From assembly GCF_058153355.1 (NCBI RefSeq), contig NZ_CM177019.1: DNA of 64,000 bases; one strand, 5' to 3'. The notes under the pieces are model-generated. The model saw only the letters and a list, made by a program, of their open reading frames with translations, was not told the origin of the DNA and made no database searches. Every line of letters begins with the position of its first letter. Positions within the stretch are counted from its first letter, which is position 1. The position numbers and the translations under genes were made by a program. This document shows, piece after piece, positions 1 to 45,369 of the stretch.

Positions 1-318
1 ATCCGCCCATTTTGCGTTATCGCGCAGGGTAAAAGTCCAGATACGGTTGTCATTACTTTTCCACTGAGTCGCAACGCCGGGGACAATCTCCCCTTTCTCG
101 TTCTGATTCACCAGTCCTTCAAACAGATCGCGAATGACCTGAATCTCCGGCAGGCCCACGGCTTTAGCGGGATCCAGCGACGCAGGCTCATCTTTAATGT
201 GGCGCACCAGCTCCTGCTTCTCTGCCAGTACTGTGCCGCTCGGAACTTCTGCAGCATACGAAAGAGAAATGCTGCTGACCAACAGCGCACAACACGTGAC
301 TGAAACAGAGTGCTTCAT
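1..318 (-). CDS. mppA: Periplasmic murein tripeptide-binding protein MppA, N-terminal part only (gene runs off the window start)
   Basis: Minus-strand translation from ATG at 316-318 reads MKHSVSVTCCALLVSSISLSYAAEVPSGTVLAEKQELVRHIKDEPASLDPAKA... (signal peptide plus OppA/MppA-type N-terminus) with no stop before position 1; absent from the ORF track because it is truncated. Confidence 0.8.
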   Translation of the reverse strand, partial: MKHSVSVTCCALLVSSISLSYAAEVPSGTVLAEKQELVRHIKDEPASLDPAKAVGLPEIQVIRDLFEGLVNQNEKGEIVPGVATQWKSNDNRIWTFTLRDNAKWAD

Positions 319-375
319 AAGTTTCCCTCTAACCGACATTAAAATTGATGCGTAATTATTTGTTTCGCCTTAAAG

Positions 376-410
376 AAATGCAAACAACTTCCATCAAAAA
401 AGTGACAAAG
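376..410. repeat. Copy A of an imperfect ~35-bp direct repeat (aaatgcaaacaacttccatcaaaaaagtgacaaag), in the mppA upstream region
   Basis: Aligns with 4372-4408 (aaatacaaacaacttccggcaaaaaagtgatacaag) with about 30 of 35 positions identical, same orientation. Confidence 0.6.
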
Positions 411-654
411 GAAGCATCAAATGTTTTAAGTATCAATATATCAAATCAGATTTAGTGTAAATAATAGTCTCCAAAATGCGGTAAAGCACATAGAACTCCG
501 AACACTACGTTCGGGCTTCGCACGTTCAAACCCGTTTTCGGTATCATAATCAGCATCTGTCGCCATTGTACGAAGAATAAAAAATAACCAAAACGTTGAA
601 AGGAACTGAGAATACGTTAAGAGAAGAATTAAATTAATGTATCAGCAAGTAGTG

Positions 655-1554
655 CTAAACAGCACCTTTATACTTCAGCCTATCTATAAATAATGAGAAT
701 GCCGAGCCAGCATGTCGACGGTGTGGATAGTACAGGTGATAACCGGGTAAATCTGGTGTGAATTTATCCAAAACACGTATCAGTTTTTTTTCTTTAATAG
801 CCCGCTCAACCTGATCATAAGGTAGATACGCCAATCCATGCCCATCAATTGCAGCATCAATGATCAGGTCTATCGTATTCAGTAAAAGCTGACCTTCCAT
901 GCGAACACGAACTTCACGTCCACCGCGTATTAATCTCCAGCGATTTGCTGTACCCGATGTGGGAAGATACAAATTAATTGCCTGATGATCTATTAATTGT
1001 GACACTGACGTTGGAGCACTTCGACGAGAAAAATAATCCGGTGAGCCAACAATAGCCATTGGTATATCTGGCCCGATTCGAATGGCGATCATATCTTTAT
1101 CCATCTCCCCACCCAGACGGACGCCTGCATCAAAACGTTCAGAAACGACATCGGTCAAACCATAATCAATGGTAAGCTGGATATCAATTTCAGGATGCGA
1201 TTTCAGGAATGTGCGCATAGCTGGTAACAATATCGTTTTTGCTGCATGTTCTACAGTAGTAATACGTATTGTCCCGGATGGGCGGTTCTGCAGATCGCTC
1301 AGGGATGTCAGGGCAGAATCTATGTCATGCAACATAGGGCCAAGAACAGACAAAAGATGCTCGCCCGCTTCAGTGGGTACAACGCTGCGCGTGGTTCGCG
1401 TCAGAAGCCGCAATCCCAATCGTTCTTCTATACGGCGCACTATCTGGCTTAAAGCTGACTGCGCCATGCTCAGGCGGGCTGCTGCGCGAGTGAAGCTACG
1501 CTCCTCTGCAACGACGACAAACGCCATCAGATCAGCGATTTCTTCACGCTTCAT
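655..1554 (-). CDS. ycjZ: LysR-family transcriptional regulator
   Basis: 299-aa ORF with N-terminal winged-HTH (MKREEIADLMAFVVVAEERSFTRAAARLSMAQSALSQ) and LysR substrate-binding-type C-terminus; divergent from the hydrolase genes as in E. coli ycjZ/ycjY. Confidence 0.9.
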   Translation of the reverse strand: MKREEIADLMAFVVVAEERSFTRAAARLSMAQSALSQIVRRIEERLGLRLLTRTTRSVVPTEAGEHLLSVLGPMLHDIDSALTSLSDLQNRPSGTIRITTVEHAAKTILLPAMRTFLKSHPEIDIQLTIDYGLTDVVSERFDAGVRLGGEMDKDMIAIRIGPDIPMAIVGSPDYFSRRSAPTSVSQLIDHQAINLYLPTSGTANRWRLIRGGREVRVRMEGQLLLNTIDLIIDAAIDGHGLAYLPYDQVERAIKEKKLIRVLDKFTPDLPGYHLYYPHRRHAGSAFSLFIDRLKYKGAV

Positions 1555-1679
1555 TCAGTATCTCCATACAATCTATTAATCATTTAAATGATAGGTCTAA
1601 TCATAATTTAGGGTCTAATCAACTTAATGATCAATATCTATAGTGATATCACCAACCGTCAAAACGAACCGACAACTCC

Positions 1680-2612
1680 ATGAGGAACGGAATGATGAAT
1701 AATAAAGTCAGCTTCACTAACAGCAATAATCCAACCATCTCTTTGTCTGCAGTGATCTATTTCCCTCCAAAATTTGATGAAACCCGTCAGTATCCGGCAA
1801 TTGTGGTATCTCACCCAGGTGGGGGCGTTAAAGAGCAAACGGCCGGAACCTATGCCGAAAAACTGGCGGAAAAGGGATTTGTCACTATTGCTTATGACGC
1901 ATCTTATCAAGGTGAAAGCGGCGGCGAGCCGCGTCAGTTAGAAAACCCATACATTCGTACTGAAGACGTCAGTGCCGTGATTGATTACCTGACAACGCTT
2001 TCTTATGTCGACAATACCCGAATTGGTGCGATGGGAATTTGTGCCGGTGCAGGATATACAGCCAATGCTGCAATTCAGGATCGCCGCATCAAGGCCATCG
2101 CTACCGTTAGTGCGGTCAATATTGGTTCGATGTTCCGTAATGGTTGGGAAAACAATGTGAAATCTATTGATGCCCTACCATACGTTGACGCGGGTTCAAA
2201 CGCCCGAACCAGCGATATTAGCAGCGGAGAATACGCCACTATGCCACTGGCACCAATGAAGGAGTCCGATGCGCCGAACGAAGAACTGCGTCAGGCCTGG
2301 GAGTATTACCACACCCCTCGCGCGCAGTATCCAACAGCACCGGGTTACGCTACTTTGCGCAGCCTTAACCAGATTATTACCTATGATGCTTACCATATGG
2401 CGGAAGTGTACCTGACTCAGCCGATACAGATTGTGGCGGGCAGCCAGGCAGGGAGCAAATGGATGAGTGACGACCTGTACGATCGAGCATCAAGCCAGGA
2501 TAAACGCTATCACATTGTTGAAGGCGCAAACCATATGGATCTTTATGACGGCAAAGTCTATGTGGCTGAATCAATTTCAGTATTAGCTCCGTTCTTTGAG
2601 GAAACTCTGTAA
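1680..2612 (+). CDS. Alpha/beta-hydrolase (dienelactone-hydrolase-like), ycjY-family, copy 1
   Basis: 310-aa ORF; paralogous to the next gene (shared FPPKFDE..QYPAI..AYDAS.QGESGGEPR..RIGxxGxCxGxGY blocks). True start may be one of the ATGs at 1692-1697 (AGGAA upstream). Stop TAA overlaps the next ATG (taATG at 2610-2614). Confidence 0.8.
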   Translation: MRNGMMNNKVSFTNSNNPTISLSAVIYFPPKFDETRQYPAIVVSHPGGGVKEQTAGTYAEKLAEKGFVTIAYDASYQGESGGEPRQLENPYIRTEDVSAVIDYLTTLSYVDNTRIGAMGICAGAGYTANAAIQDRRIKAIATVSAVNIGSMFRNGWENNVKSIDALPYVDAGSNARTSDISSGEYATMPLAPMKESDAPNEELRQAWEYYHTPRAQYPTAPGYATLRSLNQIITYDAYHMAEVYLTQPIQIVAGSQAGSKWMSDDLYDRASSQDKRYHIVEGANHMDLYDGKVYVAESISVLAPFFEETL

Positions 2613-3551
2613 TGAAACATATTCAAATCCGTAATAGTGATATGGCCTGGCATATTGCTGCCAATATTCAGTTTCCACCAAATTTTGATGAGTCAAAACA
2701 GTATCCGGCGATTATCAGCGTCCATCCTTTTGGCAGTTGTAAGGAGCAGACGTCTGGCAATATCTATGGCAAGGCATTGGCTGAAAAAGGCTATGTCGTT
2801 CTCGCTTATGACGCCAGTTTCCAGGGAGAATCTGGTGGGGAGCCTCGTTGGATAGAAGATCCGACACAGCGCGTAGAGGATATTAGCCGTGTTATCGATT
2901 ATGCAGTAACTCTGCCATATGTTGATGCTGAACGCATTGGCGTGCTGGGTGTGTGTGTGGGGGGGGGGGGGTGGCTATGCCATTAATGCCGCGCTGACAG
3001 AAAAACGAATTAAAGCTGTAGTGAGTATTACGGGTGTTAATATCGGGCGTCTTTTTCGGGAAGGTTTCAGCAATTACGATCCGATTGGCGCATTGAATGC
3101 AATGGCGTCGCAACGAACCAAAGAGGCTCGTGGTGGAGAATTACAGATCAACGAATTACTTCCCGCCAGCCTGGATGCAGCAAAAGCCCATGGACTGACC
3201 GAACGCGATGTTTATGAAGCAACTGACTACTATAAAACACCACGCGGGCAACAACCGGGAGGTGCGACAAAAATGTTGTTCTCACATGCACAGAAAACGC
3301 TGGCCTGGGATGCCTTCGCATTTACTGAAGTGTTACTGACTCAGCCGGTGATGGTAGTAGTTGGTGAAAAAGTCGGTGCCTTCGGTGCTTATCGTGATGG
3401 ACTGGAAGTCTATGGCCGGGCGATGGTTTCGCAGGATCGTCAGTTAGTTTCGTTACCCGATTTCTCACATTATGAACTGTATGACAAACCGGAAGCAGTT
3501 CAGGAGGCGCTGGAAAAAGTTATTCCTTTTTTCAACACCCATCTGGGATAA
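2612..3551 (+). pseudogene. Alpha/beta-hydrolase, ycjY-family, copy 2, interrupted by a +1 frameshift in a 13-G homopolymer (2959-2971)
   Basis: ORF track splits it into 2612..2986 (ends ...GVCVGGGGWLCH*) and 2919..3551 (reads ...WVCVWGGGGGYAINAAL...). Removing one G gives a continuous ~312-aa frame, GVCVGGGGGYAINAALTEKRIK, collinear with copy 1. Confidence 0.75.
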
Positions 3552-4497: not shown

Positions 4498-5226
4498 ATG
4501 ACCGTAACCCGCCCACGCGCCGAACGCGGCGCATTTCCGCCCGGAACAGAACATTACGGACGTTCATTATTGGGCGCGCCGTTAATCTGGTTTCCGGCCC
4601 CTGCAGCCAGTCGCGAAAGTGGTTTGATTCTGGCTGGCACTCACGGTGATGAAAACTCTTCGGTCGTCACGCTCTCCTGTGCTCTGCGGACTTTGACACC
4701 GTCTTTGCGCCGCCATCATGTAGTGCTGTGTGTGAATCCTGACGGCTGCCAGTTAGGGTTACGGGCCAATGCTAATGGTGTGGATTTAAACAGAAACTTT
4801 CCGGCGGCGAACTGGAAGGAGGGTGAAACGGTTTATCGCTGGAACAGCGCGGCTGAAGAACGTGATGTCGTATTACTGACAGGTGACAAACCTGGCTCCG
4901 AACCTGAAACCCAGGCGCTGTGCCAGCTTATACACCGCATTCAACCTGCCTGGGTGGTCTCATTCCACGATCCACTGGCCTGTATTGAAGATCCCAGACA
5001 CAGCGAATTAGGCGAATGGCTGGCCCAGGCGTTTGGATTGCCTCTGGTAACCAGCGTCGGTTATGAAACTCCTGGCTCTTTCGGCAGTTGGTGTGCGGAT
5101 CTCAACCTGCATTGCATCACCGCAGAGTTTCCACCTATCTCCTCCGACGAAGCCAGCGAAAAATACCTCTTTGCGATGGCTAACTTGCTGCGCTGGCATC
5201 CTAAAGATGCAATGCGCCCGTCGTGA
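4498..5226 (+). CDS. mpaA: Murein peptide amidase A (gamma-D-Glu-Dap amidase, zinc carboxypeptidase family)
   Basis: ORF 4438..5226; internal start MTVTRPRAERGAFPPGTEHYGRS... gives 242 aa matching E. coli MpaA; HGDE zinc-binding motif present. Confidence 0.9.
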   Translation: MTVTRPRAERGAFPPGTEHYGRSLLGAPLIWFPAPAASRESGLILAGTHGDENSSVVTLSCALRTLTPSLRRHHVVLCVNPDGCQLGLRANANGVDLNRNFPAANWKEGETVYRWNSAAEERDVVLLTGDKPGSEPETQALCQLIHRIQPAWVVSFHDPLACIEDPRHSELGEWLAQAFGLPLVTSVGYETPGSFGSWCADLNLHCITAEFPPISSDEASEKYLFAMANLLRWHPKDAMRPS

Positions 5227-6166
5227 ATTGAAGCGCTGGTTCCACATCTACCGCCAGCCAGGTCGGTCCGTCAAGATCAGCAAAACTGACCTGCGGCACC
5301 AGCGGTAAAGCGGCGCTAATGGCACGAGAGGTACACAACATGCAGCCCAGCATCAGACTGAAACCTTGTGCACGCGCTTCGGTCGCCAGCGCCAGCGCTT
5401 CCGTCAGGCCACCCGTTTTATCGAGCTTAATGTTAACCATCTCATAGCGCCCTTTCAGCGCCTTCAGATTGCTACGAGTATGACAACTTTCATCTGCACA
5501 AATCGGTAACGGATGAATAAAATTCTCCAGTGCCGCATCGTCCTGCGCAGGAAGCGGTTGTTCAAGCATCGCAACGCCTAAATCCGCCAATAGCTGGCAA
5601 CGCGCCGCCAACCCTTCTGCACGCCAGGATTCATTTGCATCAACGATTAGCGTCGCATCGGGTACAGCCGTGCGAATTGCTACCATCCGCTCACTGATAA
5701 GATGGTTATCCAGCTTCACTTTCAGTAATTTCGCGCCTGCCTGCCAGAGTGTTGATGCACTATTGGCCATCTGATCAGGCGTACCGATGACTACCGTCTG
5801 GGCAGTGGTGACTGTCTCGGGAAGCGTTATGCCGATCAAATCAGCCAGCGATTGCTGCTGTTTTCGCGCCGCCAGATCCCACAATGCACAATCCAGCGCA
5901 TTACGTGCTGCGCCGGCAGGGAGAATTTTTTGCAACTCCTCCCGTGTCAGCCCTTTCTCTAATTGCGGCACGACGCTCATAATTTGCGCCATTACCGAGG
6001 CATCACTTTCTCCATAACGCGGATACGGCGTGCATTCACCGGTGCCTTTAATACCTTCTTCTTCCAGTTCAACCACCACCACGCGCGCTTCACTACGACT
6101 TCCCCGAGCAATCACAAACGGGGTATGTAAGGGCCAGGCTTCCTCAAATACCTTAACGATTCTCAT
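5201..6166 (-). CDS. ycjG: L-Ala-D/L-Glu epimerase (enolase superfamily)
   Basis: ORF 5201..6208; start at MRIVKVFEEAWPLHTPFVIARGSR gives 321 aa; convergent with mpaA and overlapping its 3' end by 26 bp. Confidence 0.9.
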   Translation of the reverse strand: MRIVKVFEEAWPLHTPFVIARGSRSEARVVVVELEEEGIKGTGECTPYPRYGESDASVMAQIMSVVPQLEKGLTREELQKILPAGAARNALDCALWDLAARKQQQSLADLIGITLPETVTTAQTVVIGTPDQMANSASTLWQAGAKLLKVKLDNHLISERMVAIRTAVPDATLIVDANESWRAEGLAARCQLLADLGVAMLEQPLPAQDDAALENFIHPLPICADESCHTRSNLKALKGRYEMVNIKLDKTGGLTEALALATEARAQGFSLMLGCMLCTSRAISAALPLVPQVSFADLDGPTWLAVDVEPALQFTTGALHL

Positions 6167-6284
6167 CTTTACTCCTTGTTGTCGCGGTGGTCTGCGGATT
6201 AAGCGCAAATAGCGTTTGCTGTGTTATTGACAGTTAGCATAAACTAGGTGTGACGTTAACTATATGTAAACAGGAAAGATAATC

Positions 6285-6788
6285 ATGTCACAAACCGTTC
6301 ATTTCCAGGGCAACCCGGTTACAGTAGCCAATTCCATCCCGCTGGCGGGTAGCAAAGCGCAGACTTTTACTCTCGTGGCAAAAGATCTGTCTGACGTCAC
6401 CCTCGGTCAGTTTGCGGGTAAACGCAAAGTGCTGAACATTTTCCCGAGTATTGATACCGGTGTTTGCGCCGCATCAGTACGTAAGTTTAACCAACTGGCA
6501 ACTGAGATCGACAACACCGTTGTGCTGTGTATCTCTGCCGATCTGCCGTTCGCCCAGTCTCGTTTCTGCGGCGCAGAAGGTCTGAACAACGTTATCACCC
6601 TCTCCACTTTCCGTAACGCTGAATTCCTGCAAGCCTACGGTGTGGCAATTGCTGATGGCCCACTGAAAGGTCTGGCAGCGCGTGCCGTTGTGGTTATCGA
6701 TGAAAATGACAATGTGATTTTCAGCCAGCTGGTTGATGAAATCACCACCGAGCCGGATTACGAAGCAGCTCTTGCTGTACTGCGCTAA
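6285..6788 (+). CDS. tpx: Thiol peroxidase (atypical 2-Cys peroxiredoxin)
   Basis: 167-aa [38 protein letters not shown]...; recognised as E. coli Tpx. Confidence 0.95.
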
Positions 6789-6796
6789 ACAACTGT

Positions 6797-6835
6797 GCCG
6801 TTCACTGAATCACCACCGGTGAACGGCAGTTTTTG
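6797..6835 (+). terminator. Rho-independent terminator of tpx
   Basis: gccgttcac - 12-nt loop - gtgaacggc followed by agtttttga, 9 bp after the tpx stop. Confidence 0.75.
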
Positions 6836-6929
6836 ATCTACCAATCCCACTATTTTCCAGAGTTCCTGCCACTATTCCCCCTAACCGTTGTGCATTAAGA
6901 TTGTTCTTTGCCATTATTAGCCCAGCGGA

Positions 6930-8984
6930 GTGATGACTATTATGGATGATAAACAAATTACGGTCTGGCTTAAACACAATTGCTGTTCAACGGACATTCC
7001 TGCCATTGCCGAGGCACTAACGAACCATGCAGAATGGCTTTTAGAGCTAGCGCCAGATCCTATTGAACAAGGTAGTTCATGTTTACCGCCGACAGCTGCA
7101 GCCGGTATTTTTCTTGGCGCAGCGGCGATGGTTCACTGCGGCGAGGCTAGTGGTGCAGAAACCTGGCTCGAAGCAGCCATTACTGATTACCATTTCTTTA
7201 ATCCAAATGGATATAGTTCATGGAGAGGCAGTACGCCTGTTTTTACAGCATTATCGCGTTACCCGGCATTAAGAATGGTGTTATTTAACGCCGCTTGCGC
7301 AATGGAAGACTGGAATAAAGCATCCGCTGTTCTTGAATCGCTTTTCCATGCCGGCGATGTCCCGGAAGATAACCCTGTCGCCCCAAATTTTACCCCTTAT
7401 GCGCTGAAAGCGTTTATCGCGGATTACCACCCGTTAGGGCCTGCTTATTATGATGAAACCTGGTTGCTGGCAAAACAAGCGTGGTTAATTAATGCGGGCG
7501 TTCTGGATGAGCGAACCTGTAATACCTGGAAGCAATATACCCGCCACTTGCGCCATTTGATCCACAATACACAGTTTGCCGATGCGCTCTCTTTTGTACG
7601 CAGTAAAAAAGAACCGTTAAATCATATCCATACCTACTCAGACTTTTATCTGTATGCGATTGGTTTATTTTCTTATACTAGTCAGCTAAATGAAGCGCTG
7701 ACCTGGATAAAACAGTTAATCCACAACAATGATGGTCATTTCTGTGATCTTTTCGTTTCAACTGGCAAAGAGCGCCGAATAAAGCCTGAACTTAGTACCT
7801 TGCTGAATAATCTCTTGCACAGCGCAGAGTTTCAGGCGTTGCAGGATAAATATCTCACCGTCGGACATGATGTTGTGTATTCTGGTCCCTTCATGTCACT
7901 TTATGAAAAGGTTCTTGGCGGTAAGTCCCGAAAGCGCTGCGCGATTAGTCGAAAATTAATCTCGCCCGGCGAAGCGGTTTATGAATATCGTCAGCTGGAT
8001 AGTGTGGAATATATTGCAGCAAAAGCGGCCTTTCAGACATCTGAGCTAAATAATATCGCCCACCGGCATCATAATGATAGTTATCAGTGGCATGAATTTG
8101 CTGCCCAATGGCCTCGTCGGGGTTCACTTTCTCACCCAGATATTGCCCGTTATTTGTTTGAGCGCCAGGAAGGAAAATGCTTTGATGCCGCAGAGTTTAT
8201 ACAACTGATTGCGGAACCGTTTGTCTTTCCGATGCGTTTCATATGGGTTGCCGGGTTGTCCTTTGAATTACATCAGTATCCGGATGCCTATTTCGTAAAT
8301 GACAATATGGCGGGTGAATTTGTTAATCTCTGCTGGATGGCTATGAAATGCGGACATGCTGGAGACATTTTCAAACAACTGGCCCACGAGCCGCATGACG
8401 TTGCTGACCCTATTTACGCCATGCTCGCCACGTTTGACCGCGCTGATTGCCGTAGCGCCGCCGCCGCGCACTTTGGACAACCGGAACTACCGGAAATAAT
8501 GGCACTGGCTTTCAGTTCGAGGTTATCGCTGGACAGCGTCCTTACCATCGCTGAGTTTGGTAAAAATCAGCCGCGATTTTCACATGCGCTAGCAACGGCC
8601 CTCCTGCGTTACAACCTGCACATCTACTCAAACTATATGCCGCAGGTTAACTGGTTCCTTCAGGGGCTGGAACACTATGCTTTGGCAAAAGGCGGTCAAC
8701 TTTTAAATTTCTTTGTGCATATTCCAGAACAAATTCCCGTTCTGGCGACCATGCTGGAACATGGCGTATTAGTGCGTGGGATCGGTGAAGGTGCCTACGA
8801 TGGTTATGATAATTCAGCAAATTCATTTCATCATGCCGCCGTGATGCACTGCCTCACGCACGCGCCGGAAAAAGTCCGCTACTGGATGGAAACACCCTGG
8901 ATTCAGAACTATTTAGTGAATGCGCCGCTGCGTCAAACGGCGCGCCATGTGGAAGCCTGGCATAAAAAGTTTGGCATCAAATGA
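6930..8984 (+). CDS. Orphan 684-aa ORF of unknown function; predicted cytoplasmic, aromatic- and His-rich, no motif I can assign
   Basis: Uninterrupted 2055-nt ORF; GGAG at 6922-6925 just upstream of ATGs at 6930/6933/6942; no signal peptide or TM segment evident; no canonical Walker A (only a near-miss LGGKSRK); sits between tpx and tyrR where K-12 has only a short spacer. Confidence 0.75.
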   Translation: MMTIMDDKQITVWLKHNCCSTDIPAIAEALTNHAEWLLELAPDPIEQGSSCLPPTAAAGIFLGAAAMVHCGEASGAETWLEAAITDYHFFNPNGYSSWRGSTPVFTALSRYPALRMVLFNAACAMEDWNKASAVLESLFHAGDVPEDNPVAPNFTPYALKAFIADYHPLGPAYYDETWLLAKQAWLINAGVLDERTCNTWKQYTRHLRHLIHNTQFADALSFVRSKKEPLNHIHTYSDFYLYAIGLFSYTSQLNEALTWIKQLIHNNDGHFCDLFVSTGKERRIKPELSTLLNNLLHSAEFQALQDKYLTVGHDVVYSGPFMSLYEKVLGGKSRKRCAISRKLISPGEAVYEYRQLDSVEYIAAKAAFQTSELNNIAHRHHNDSYQWHEFAAQWPRRGSLSHPDIARYLFERQEGKCFDAAEFIQLIAEPFVFPMRFIWVAGLSFELHQYPDAYFVNDNMAGEFVNLCWMAMKCGHAGDIFKQLAHEPHDVADPIYAMLATFDRADCRSAAAAHFGQPELPEIMALAFSSRLSLDSVLTIAEFGKNQPRFSHALATALLRYNLHIYSNYMPQVNWFLQGLEHYALAKGGQLLNFFVHIPEQIPVLATMLEHGVLVRGIGEGAYDGYDNSANSFHHAAVMHCLTHAPEKVRYWMETPWIQNYLVNAPLRQTARHVEAWHKKFGIK

Positions 8985-8992
8985 ACGTTGCC

Positions 8993-9013
8993 GCTGCGCC
9001 TGAACGGCGCAGC
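8993..9013. terminator. Short GC hairpin (gctgcgcc-tgaac-ggcgcagc) between the convergent orphan ORF and tyrR
   Basis: 8-bp stem, 5-nt loop; no U-run on either strand, so at best a weak or bidirectional pause/terminator. Confidence 0.4.
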
Positions 9014-9021
9014 CAGCACAA

Positions 9022-10563
9022 TCACTCTTCGCTTTTCTTCTGGTTTAAGCCATATTCCCGCAACTTATTGGCAATCGCGGTATGCGAAACGCCGAGACGT
9101 TTTGCCAGTTTGCGCGTGCTGGGATAATTGCGATAAAGCTGAGTTAATACCGAGCGTTCAAAACGGCTGGTAATTTCGTCCAGCGAACCTTCCATCGCAT
9201 CTTCGCCCACGGCTACCGTTGCGGCGTCATAATCCGGCAACAAAATATCCTGAGGACGCAGCTCATAGCCGTCCAGTTGTGTCAGTGCGCGATAGATAGC
9301 GTTCTTTAACTGCCGCACATTTCCCGGCCACGCATAACGCGTAAGTACAGTATTCAGGTCAGCGGCCAGTTTCGGACGCGGCACGCCCTGCTCGTCGGCA
9401 AAGCGAGCGACGAACAGTTCAGTTAACGGCATGATGTCCTGCGGACAGTCACGTAACGGCGGCAGATTGAGCGTCAACACGTTCAGACGATAATAGAGAT
9501 CTTCACGGAACACGCCTTTTTGCACCAGTTCGACCAAATTCTTCTGCGTAGCGCAAATAACCCTTACATCGACATGCACTTCATGATCTTCACCAACTCG
9601 ACGGAAAGTACCATCATTAAGGAAACGCAGTAATTTCGCCTGCATCCTTGGCGACATCTCGCCTATCTCATCTAACAGCACCGAACCACCGTTCGCCTGC
9701 TCAAAGAACCCTTTTTTACCTTCCGGAGCATGACCAAACAGTTCACTCTCGACCGCATCTTCCGGTATAGACGCGCAGTTCAGCGCCAGGTAAGGTTTGC
9801 CCGCTCGTGGGCTTGCCTGATGGCAGGCGTAGGCAAAGAGATCTTTACCTGTACCGGTGTCACCCGTAATCAGCAACGGCGCGCTTAGCATCGCCAGTTT
9901 CTGCGCCTGTTCGACAACATGCTTCATTTTCGGGCTGACGGCGACAATTTGACTGAAGGCACTGACGTCCTGTGCAGCGACATTCTGCAACTGACGGCCC
10001 ATACGAATCGTCGAGCGCAACATCACCACCGCACCGGTCAGAACGTGTTGATCATTTTCATCCTGAAGATAAACAGGCGTAATCTCCATCAGGAAATTCT
10101 GCCCATTAATAACGACATGCTCGTTATGCGAGTCTTGCGGTTCGCTTTCCAGCCAGCGTAAAAAATTAAAGCCGTTAATTAATTGCGCGGCGGTATGGTT
10201 GCGCAGGCGATCCAATTTTTGCCCAAAAAGCTGACAGCTCGCCGGGTTCGCCATATCCACTTTGCTTTTCATATCAACAGAAAGCACAGGTTCAGGCAAC
10301 GCCTCCAGTAACGCGCTCAACGCCAGATGCTCACGTTCGGAAGGCATCCACGGGACAGTACGCACATCGGTAACACCTGCAATACGGCGTATTTCGGCCA
10401 TCAGACTGCTGAAGCTCTCAAACTCCAGTTCAGCAAAATTGAGGTAGATTCGCCCAATGGGGTCAATCTCAATACCGCGTAAATCAATGCCTCTCAGCAC
10501 CAGTAAATCGAGTAATTCGCGGGTCAGACCAAGTCGGTCTTCACAAAAGACTTCCAGACGCAT
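9022..10563 (-). CDS. tyrR: Transcriptional regulator TyrR (sigma-54-interaction-type AAA+ domain, C-terminal HTH)
   Basis: ORF 9022..10590; start at MRLEVFCEDRLGLTRELLDLL gives 513 aa; GDTGTGKD Walker A and C-terminal HTH present; recognised as E. coli TyrR. Confidence 0.95.
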   Translation of the reverse strand: MRLEVFCEDRLGLTRELLDLLVLRGIDLRGIEIDPIGRIYLNFAELEFESFSSLMAEIRRIAGVTDVRTVPWMPSEREHLALSALLEALPEPVLSVDMKSKVDMANPASCQLFGQKLDRLRNHTAAQLINGFNFLRWLESEPQDSHNEHVVINGQNFLMEITPVYLQDENDQHVLTGAVVMLRSTIRMGRQLQNVAAQDVSAFSQIVAVSPKMKHVVEQAQKLAMLSAPLLITGDTGTGKDLFAYACHQASPRAGKPYLALNCASIPEDAVESELFGHAPEGKKGFFEQANGGSVLLDEIGEMSPRMQAKLLRFLNDGTFRRVGEDHEVHVDVRVICATQKNLVELVQKGVFREDLYYRLNVLTLNLPPLRDCPQDIMPLTELFVARFADEQGVPRPKLAADLNTVLTRYAWPGNVRQLKNAIYRALTQLDGYELRPQDILLPDYDAATVAVGEDAMEGSLDEITSRFERSVLTQLYRNYPSTRKLAKRLGVSHTAIANKLREYGLNQKKSEE

Positions 10564-10633
10564 GGGAACCTTCACCTGAAAAAAGAACAATTAATATGAT
10601 GATATGACACTATTTGGATAGCAGGAAGGTTTC

Positions 10634-10651
10634 TGTCAACAATCATTGACA
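10634..10651. promoter_or_regulatory. Candidate TyrR box (TGTCAA-N6-TTGACA) in the tyrR promoter region
   Basis: Palindrome tgtcaacaatcattgaca about 70 bp upstream of the tyrR start; resembles the TyrR-box consensus TGTAAA-N6-TTTACA (tyrR is autoregulated). Confidence 0.5.
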
Positions 10652-10710
10652 CAAAGACGGAAAAACGGGCACTTCGGCGTAAAGATATCCGGTCAGCACC
10701 CGATATTGCA

Positions 10711-11772
10711 TTATTTTTCGCTGGGCGTTTTGCCTTTTTGCAGCGTCTCTTTCACCTGACCGATAAGCTGACGACGGAAATCCCCGAGGCGAGGTTTGTC
10801 ATCGTCAATCCACGGCAGCGGGCGGCAAAGCTCCATAGCTTTAATCCCCAGTCGCGCCGTCAGAAGTCCAGCACCAATCCCCTGAGCTGCGCGGGTAGAC
10901 AAACGCGCAGCGAGATCTTGCGACATCCAGTCCATCCCCACTTCGCGCACCAGTTCGCTGGCTCCGGCGAAAGCGATATTCAGCAATACCAGCTTAAACA
11001 GGCGCAAACGGCTGTAATATCCCAGTTCAATGCCATACAGCGTGGCGATGCGATTGATCAAACGCAGATTGCGCCAGGCGATAAATGCCATATCCACCAG
11101 CGCCAGCGGGCTAACGGCGATCATTAACGTTGATTCCGCCGCTGAGCGACTGATTTCGCGCCGCGCCTGAGCATCTAAAACCGGCTGGACCAGATGAGCA
11201 TACAGGCTGACCACTTCACGATCGTTCTGCGTTTCATGGATTGACGCATACCAGCGTTGCAGCGCCGGATGGGACTGATCAATACCCGCCTGCTGCGCCA
11301 GTTTTTCACAAAATGCGCGGCCTTTGCCCGTGCCGTGGCTGTGCAATAAATCACGCGCTTCGTCGCGTTCATGGGCGCGCTGTCGCAAGCGCCATAAGCG
11401 CCGCCACTCTGTTACCACAGAACCTACGCCAGCGCCGATAATCAATGCCCCAGCGGCACATCCACCCAGCGCTACCCAATCCTGAGTTTGCCAGGCATTC
11501 ATCGTCCACTGCACGCCCTGTCCGACAACGCTTGCACCAAACAGAGCCAACCCGCCCATCACCATTTTGCGCCACAGGCTGCGTTTCGGACGTAACGCCG
11601 CGTCCATCACCGCTTCAACTTGCCCCTCTTCTTCCTGCGCTTCGTCGAGCGTGGCCGGGGCAAAATTTTGCGCCTGATTTTCGTCAAAGGTCTGCTGCGC
11701 CCTGAATTTTGGATTCTGATCGACCTCCAGTGGACCGTCGAAATCAATACGTGGTTTTAACGGTTCGGTCAT
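10711..11772 (-). CDS. ycjF: Inner-membrane protein YcjF (UPF0283 family)
   Basis: 353-aa [26 protein letters not shown]...; hydrophobic segments; overlaps ycjX stop (operon ycjXF). Confidence 0.9.
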
Positions 11773-14309: not shown

Positions 14310-14323
14310 ATGCCAGCTACGTT

Positions 14324-14407
14324 GCCTGAATGCCGGATGCGATGCTGGCGCATCTTATCCGGCCTACATTTATAAACCGGATAAAGTACTCGCGCCGCAT
14401 CCGGCAA
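14324..14407. repeat. REP/BIME-type extragenic palindromes between ycjW and ompG
   Basis: Two REP-like units (gcctgaatgccggatgcg...cgcatcttatccggcctaca and ccggataaagtactcgcgccgcatccggcaa) in the convergent intergenic space. Confidence 0.65.
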
Positions 14408-14419
14408 TTTAGCACATTA

Positions 14420-30337: not shown

Positions 30338-30356
30338 CGAAGTTGGGCAATACAAC

Positions 30357-30440
30357 TTGCCGGATGCGGCGTGAACGCCTTATCCGGCATACATAATCAA
30401 TACGTCGTTTGCAGGCCTGATAAGCGCAGCGCATCAGACA
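30357..30440. repeat. REP/BIME elements between pspF and puuE
   Basis: ttgccggatgcggcgtgaacgccttatccggcatac and gcaggcctgataagcgcagcgcatcagaca REP-like palindromic units. Confidence 0.65.
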
Positions 30441-30456
30441 TTATTGCGTTGGGCTA

Positions 30457-45319: not shown

Positions 45320-45325
45320 TGTTTT

Positions 45326-45368
45326 GCACCTCATCCTGACAGGCCCCCCCCCTCAGGATGAGGTGTTC
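45326..45368. terminator. Bidirectional hairpin between the convergent sapF and MFS genes, with a C10 homopolymer in the loop
   Basis: cacctcatcctga - caggcccccccccc - tcaggatgaggtg; 13-bp perfect stem. Confidence 0.6.
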
Positions 45369-45369
45369 A

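Follow-up and report, generated by a model that had tools for sequence, protein, structure and literature searches.

A stable hairpin without a U-tract between the convergent stop codons of an orphan gene and tyrR, at one end of a rare accessory cassette in Escherichia coli

The question raised by this locus is how transcription ends, and whether the expression of two genes is coupled, where an orphan gene and tyrR meet tail to tail in the chromosome of Escherichia coli. The window analysed here comprises 64,000 nucleotides (64 kb) of contig NZ_CM177019.1 (assembly GCF_058153355.1), in which the genes around the junction are arranged in the order mpaA, ycjG, tpx, the orphan gene (X), tyrR, ycjF, and ycjX. 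The orphan gene encodes 680 aa on the + strand (6942–8984) when read from the start assigned by RefSeq, ATG 6942; GTG 6930, which gives the longest ORF, and ATG 6933 are alternative starts. In the ORF list, its stop codon (TGA) is located at 8982–8984 on the + strand, and tyrR (9022–10563 on the − strand; 513 aa), which was delimited by the ORF list, RefSeq annotation, and alignment with K-12, ends with TGA at 9024–9022. The convergent intergenic gap transcribed from both strands is therefore 37 bp in length (8985–9021), exactly as given in a preliminary description of this DNA. The gap contains a single perfect 8-bp stem, formed by GCTGCGCC (8993–9000) and GGCGCAGC (9006–9013) around the 5-nt loop TGAAC, with seven G-C pairs and one A-U pair. 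This core palindrome (8993–9013), characterized by fold energies, a chance test, and allele comparison, is transcribed from both sides. The helix extends over 8987–9017 in the + RNA, and in the − RNA (tyrR-sense), a longer imperfect helix (−28.3 kcal/mol) reaches both stop codons. T-runs are absent after the stem in both directions; the only U-rich sequence is a degenerate stretch, GUUCAUUU, which is found in the tyrR-sense RNA alone and begins 2 nt past the extended stem. The sequence and a terminator scan thus bear out the initial view of an 8-bp GC stem with a 5-nt loop and no U-run on either strand.

The same description called this hairpin weak, which the fold energies contradict. The core hairpin has −15.8 kcal/mol in the + RNA and −16.7 kcal/mol in the − RNA, and the whole gap folds at −19.7 kcal/mol (+; z = −3.2) and −22.2 kcal/mol (−; z = −3.1), the z-scores being relative to dinucleotide shuffles. 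In a chance test, a search of the 64-kb window for perfect stems (≥8 bp, G/C in at least 7 of 8, loop of 3–8 nt) gave 4 loci, versus 0.54 ± 0.71 in shuffles; the expected number of such stems per 37-bp gap is ∼1e-4, or ∼1e-3 at the window's own observed rate. The hairpin is thus strong and occurs beyond chance. The palindrome is present in one copy in the window, and in E. coli genomes, the median number of places matched by the junction query (8925–9085) was 1. Identity with a repetitive extragenic palindromic (REP) element was considered and rejected, because the hairpin is single-copy and its sequence is unlike the REP copies in the window. A scan of positions 6000–11000 against Rfam (E ≤ 1) gave no match.

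The complete genomes of E. coli that were compared (5,426) show two haplotypes. Just 30–32 (∼0.6%) possess the orphan gene together with this junction, and the gap hairpin was matched solely in genomes that carry the orphan gene (32 of the 5,426). In the other ∼99.4%, tpx converges directly on tyrR across 43 bp, and the two genes share one hairpin, which in K-12 has a 13-bp stem (ATGCCTGATGGTG-TTGC-CACCATCAGGCAT) and folds at −21.4 kcal/mol. Because tpx and tyrR are convergent in nearly all genomes, tail-to-tail packing is the ancestral state of the locus; such packing is also common elsewhere in the window. In the window, tpx (thiol peroxidase; 6285–6788 on the + strand, from the ORF list and the RefSeq annotation of near-identical loci) is followed by a canonical intrinsic terminator (6793–6834, + strand), which was recognized from the sequence, its absence from the aligned K-12 locus (L002, 2093–2135), and its terminator score. 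It consists of a 12-bp stem (6796–6807/6817–6828) followed by TTTTT (6830–6834) and forms the left end of a 2.2-kb cassette, which comprises the tpx terminator, the orphan gene, and the GC-rich hairpin; the 37-bp gap is the right-hand cassette junction.

The two haplotypes are unalignable from the last codons of tpx to the last codons of tyrR. As a whole, tyrR can be aligned with its K-12 counterpart without gaps at 96% identity, and its final 30 bp (9022–9051) contain 8 mismatches versus ∼1 per 30 bp farther inside the gene. Mismatches to K-12 also cluster in the end of tpx (last 30 bp; 6780–6788). As a result, Tpx ends in …AVLR in the cassette haplotype and in …AVLKA in K-12, and TyrR ends in …NQKKSEE (stop codon TGA) here and in …SQKKNEE (TAA) in K-12, the last ∼24 bp being different. 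The unalignable spacer and the divergence piled up at the gene ends indicate that the cassette took the place of the ancestral 43-bp spacer, with exchange points just inside tpx and tyrR. The position of these points within both genes suggests that the replacement was homologous and not a site-specific insertion. The cassette changed only the partner and the hairpin of tyrR, not the packing. A search of contigs for a donor with the arrangement tpx–X–tyrR found none and gave two alpha-proteobacterial relatives only. Among strains in general, the C-terminal tail of TyrR is variable (…NEE, …SEE, or …GEE). The two cassette ends have the 8-mer TGAACGGC in common: in the tpx terminator it belongs to the right arm (6820–6827), and in the gap hairpin it covers parts of the loop and the right arm (9001–9008). 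It may be shared by chance, for which we estimate a probability of roughly 2%.

The preliminary description attached importance to the junction in case the orphan gene were toxic or conditionally expressed, a suggestion that finds no backing in the protein. No match was obtained in Pfam, NCBIfam, PADLOC, or PHROGs, no toxin, defence, phage, or regulatory signature was detected, and there is no small partner ORF. The AlphaFold model is confident (pLDDT 87), and a fold search with it suggested only tetratricopeptide (TPR) repeats, in the N-terminal half; the C-terminal half is conserved and has no known fold. No consensus-like promoter was found ahead of the gene. In at least one strain, 90-3040, the gene has been disrupted by IS600 (positions 501–2660 of locus L010), leaving a 365-aa C-terminal ORF, and tpx is no longer located within 2.6 kb of the disrupted gene; 13 other genomes (H48–H60) carry the junction allele of this strain. 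Within the 3′ end of the orphan gene, the − strand has a promoter-like sequence in antisense orientation (TTGACG-17 nt-AATAGT; 8908–8936), recognized solely by its similarity to the consensus.

The orphan family, whose uncharacterized proteins have about 680 aa, is small and patchy, with 8 clusters at E ≤ 1e-3 in a 90% database and 91 representatives in a 50% library. Its members reside at several core-gene junctions, namely tpx|tyrR, malM|ubiC (a single gene in L018), downstream of hrpA (L008 and L020, beside Tli4_C and ankyrin genes), and between mppA and ydcZ. The last case, a metagenomic enterobacterial contig (L006, 1852–6031), contains a split copy, with ORFs of 358 and 344 aa matching the N- and C-terminal halves, respectively, which is directly followed by a full-length paralogue. 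A further relative (L003) is found in a Salmonella island together with TsiV, DUF4034, and IS1 remnants, and some relatives of the orphan protein have ankyrin repeats. No match was found on phages, and the only plasmid match was a distant one from Sinorhizobium, with none on enterobacterial plasmids; the cassette itself contains no recombinase or transposase. The neighbours TsiV, Tli4_C, ankyrin, and DUF4034 resemble the immunity arrays of type VI secretion systems (T6SSs), a likeness between gene neighbourhoods that may serve as a lead. The broader idea that the terminator, orphan gene, and hairpin constitute a mobile cassette that has landed repeatedly at core-gene junctions of Enterobacteriaceae and gathered beside T6SS-immunity-like genes, with the hairpins insulating its boundaries, is speculative, and we regard it as improbable.

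Within E. coli, orphan-gene alleles diverge by as much as 6% at the nucleotide level and 9% at the protein level. All 16 stem positions of the gap hairpin are identical in all E. coli alleles seen, the most divergent (L021) among them, and in one metagenome contig, so that these alleles and the contig, all with the same stem, show no covariation. The only changes near the hairpin are G>T in the loop, C>G at 9014, and C>T at 9019, and the change at 9014 (strain MB06171) breaks the outer helix. At 6% divergence, ∼1 change is expected in 16 positions; the invariance of the stem is thus neither significant nor informative as a sign of constraint. That the hairpin travels together with the gene was considered and rejected, as distant homologues in Salmonella and metagenomes (50–60% identity) have unrelated downstream sequences. 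Some of these distant homologues at other loci are followed by other hairpins that also lack a U-tract.

To which class of 3′-end element the gap hairpin belongs was assessed with a d'Aubenton-Carafa-type score (d), the values of which are approximate because they were recomputed with modern energies. In the orphan-sense direction, d was −44 for the core and −57 for the extended hairpin, and in the tyrR-sense direction, it was −38. The K-12 shared hairpin scored −25 (tpx-sense) and −22 (tyrR-sense), and the tpx terminator of the cassette (d = +7.4) was the sole positive among those tested. Similarly, the tail score nT was 0.02–0.54 for the gap hairpin versus 3.98 for the tpx terminator, and a consensus terminator scan did not call the gap hairpin. 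Of the two parts of an intrinsic terminator, the gap contains the GC-rich stem-loop and lacks the U-tract directly after it. Because d is negative on both strands, the element is not a canonical intrinsic terminator. What the gap does contain is a stable stem-loop with no U-rich sequence after it, a feature of the elements described by Dar and Sorek, and a hairpin-encoding element between a convergent gene pair, a feature of bidirectional terminators. Since the K-12 hairpin also fails the intrinsic score, the locus normally relies on such elements.

Sequences beyond the hairpin differ between the two directions. On the + strand, the stretch directly 3′ of the hairpin in the orphan-sense direction (9014–9093) is C-rich and G-poor (C 0.30, G 0.17) and represents a candidate Rho loading region according to the rule of Dar and Sorek (PMC6061677). 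The C/G ratio is 1.71 in these first 80 nt, and further regions with C>G follow at +160–240 and +480–600. In the tyrR-sense direction, the ratio past the hairpin is 1.21 with no clear C-rich region there, and the first bubble of C over G appears 160–240 nt on.

Published work provides two models for hairpins of this kind. Rho-dependent transcripts of E. coli have precise steady-state 3′ ends just past stable stem-loops without U-rich tails; these stem-loops shield the RNA from PNPase and RNase II, with rut sites directly beyond them (Dar & Sorek 2018, PMC6061677). Hundreds of convergent gene pairs of E. coli, on the other hand, have bidirectional terminators unlike intrinsic ones, which are Rho-independent and need the RNA hairpin to position collisions: the hairpin pauses polymerases, and head-on and trailing collisions complete termination (Wang et al. 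2022, bioRxiv 10.1101/2022.10.23.513370). The work builds on Ju et al. 2019, as cited there, with ynaJ–uspE as an example pair.

Data for K-12 bear directly on this locus. In MG1655, a Rho termination region antisense to tyrR was mapped on the minus strand at position 1387858 (Adams et al. 2021, PMC7815308, supplementary file 2), with a Rho score of 19.1 (p = 3.6e-30) and upstream/downstream coverages of 293/9 without and 225/132 with bicyclomycin (PMC7815308). Because tyrR aligns gap-free at 96% identity, this position could be mapped by simple arithmetic to ∼9424 (9400–9450) on the + strand of the window, ∼402 nt inside tyrR. The presence of a Rho region antisense to tyrR means that K-12 transcription from the tpx side proceeds beyond the shared hairpin and is halted by Rho within antisense tyrR. 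In this respect, the earlier point that a transcript reading through from one gene would be antisense to its neighbour holds as a matter of geometry, and the K-12 region shows that read-through of this kind is ancestral. In K-12 Term-seq data, the dominant 3′ end of tpx is at its stop codon, upstream of the shared hairpin (PMC7815308), so that ends set by the hairpin cannot be taken for granted here.

Taking these results together, our preferred reading, held tentatively but with more confidence than any other, is that the gap hairpin is a pausing, 3′-protecting stem-loop shared by the orphan and tyrR mRNAs, with termination completed by Rho. The hairpin would pause RNA polymerase arriving from either the orphan or the tyrR side and would block 3′-to-5′ exonucleases, so that both mRNAs would gain a defined and stable end. 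Polymerases that move past it would enter untranslated antisense sequence and be released by Rho, in the orphan-sense direction probably within the first few hundred nucleotides of antisense tyrR. By analogy with K-12, we infer that the same Rho backstop acts on read-through from the orphan gene.

The main rival shares the pausing step and dispenses with Rho and a U-tract: the hairpin would pause polymerases, and head-on or trailing collisions would release them. The anatomy of the junction fits this class, since one hairpin in a short convergent gap is transcribed both ways. Collisions, however, require appreciable transcription from both sides, and convergent traffic is probably light here, as the orphan gene lacks a consensus-like promoter and follows the canonical tpx terminator. 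In addition, tyrR is weakly expressed and autoregulated, and the K-12 data on the tpx strand show Rho dependence at this very locus. We consider this mechanism rather unlikely. Close behind it in probability, and also unlikely, is the reading that the palindrome is a functionless relic of the junction, which arrived with the cassette, e.g. as a former terminator of the orphan gene or as intergenic DNA of the donor, and persists only because the cassette is young. Its restriction to the 32 of 5,426 genomes with the orphan gene, the lack of covariation together with a stem invariance that fits the neutral expectation, the outer helix broken by 9014 C>G in MB06171, and the absence of the hairpin beside distant homologues are all as a relic would predict. 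A perfect 8-bp stem with seven G-C pairs placed exactly between two stop codons is, however, very unlikely by chance, and the stem has stayed intact while the cassette alleles diverged by 6%. Furthermore, a transcribed hairpin of about −16 to −22 kcal/mol affects 3′-end stability, whether selected or not.

Other explanations carry far less weight. The notion in the preliminary description that the boundary is deliberately leaky, coupling the orphan gene and tyrR reciprocally by interference or antisense RNA for the sake of a toxic or conditional gene, is permitted by the convergent geometry and is compatible with the lack of an efficient intrinsic terminator on either strand and with antisense transcription into tyrR in K-12. 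It is nevertheless improbable: toxin, defence, and phage families gave no match to the orphan protein, TPR repeats are the only fold found for it, no small partner ORF accompanies it, the gene tolerates disruption by IS600 and is missing from >99% of strains, and nearly all E. coli have equal packing with tpx in its place. Rho, moreover, limits antisense read-through. More improbable still is a canonical Rho-independent terminator in one or both directions. The GC-rich stem is of suitable size and has a suitable loop, and the degenerate GUUCAUUU lies near the stem in the tyrR-sense RNA, but the strongly negative d on both strands, the low nT relative to that of the tpx terminator, and the silent scan speak against it. 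An equally slim chance is given to a site acting at the DNA level, either a palindromic operator or a recombination or insertion target of the cassette. A perfect 8-N5-8 palindrome at the cassette edge, and hairpins at both cassette ends with a common 8-mer, would suit such a site. The cassette, however, encodes no recombinase or transposase, the divergence located within the 3′ ends of both flanking genes suggests homologous exchange, the palindrome is single-copy, the shared 8-mer has the chance probability of roughly 2% given above, and homologues at other loci largely lack related flanking palindromes. The TyrR box has the sequence TGTAAA-N6-TTTACA, which the gap palindrome does not resemble.

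The gap hairpin, which forms one end of a rare accessory cassette, is thus a real and non-random but ordinary 3′-end element. There is no sign of a special regulatory device or of a designed coupling between the orphan gene and tyrR, and both notions are unsupported. The junction adds another case of convergent genes with a common stem-loop that has no U-tract, the rest of termination being left to Rho or to collisions. Its wider use may lie in the comparison of haplotypes: the ∼0.6% of E. coli strains with the cassette represent a natural experiment in which tpx has received a canonical terminator and tyrR a new partner and a new hairpin. The 3′ ends of tyrR and the antisense RNA across the two haplotypes could show how much weight the shared hairpin and the convergent neighbour carry. 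Apart from the hairpin, the uncharacterized orphan gene is of mild interest in its own right.

Other convergent junctions in the window are arranged in various ways. The genes mpaA (+) and ycjG (−) overlap tail to tail by 26 bp (5201–5226) and have no intergenic terminator. A 50-bp convergent gap (45320–45369) contains one shared 13-bp hairpin, the loop of which has a run of nine C residues (nine G on the other strand), with no U-run on the minus-strand side. Two longer convergent gaps, 14310–14419 (110 bp) and 30338–30456 (119 bp), are filled by REP-type palindromes (GCCGGATGCG…).

Compared with known systems, the gap hairpin resembles REP elements in being a GC-rich extragenic palindrome between convergent genes, but unlike them, it is single-copy and has no sequence match to the REP copies in the window. 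It shares with the stem-loops of Dar and Sorek (PMC6061677) its stability, its position right after a stop codon, the lack of a uridine tail, and, in the orphan-sense direction, C-rich and G-poor sequence downstream, whereas it differs from them in serving two convergent genes and in the weakness of the C>G signal on the tyrR-sense side. With bidirectional terminators such as that of ynaJ–uspE, it has in common that one hairpin, non-intrinsic and transcribed both ways, occupies a short gap between convergent genes; unlike in those cases, transcription from the orphan side is probably low, and the K-12 data at the locus indicate Rho. The closest parallel in position is the K-12 tpx/tyrR hairpin, which is likewise located by the tyrR stop codon between convergent genes, has a similar energy, and fails the intrinsic score. 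The two hairpins are, however, unrelated in sequence, and the partner of tyrR here is the orphan gene, not tpx. Where the cassette is present, tpx is served by a canonical terminator of its own, 2.2 kb from this junction, whereas in K-12, it has only the shared U-poor hairpin.
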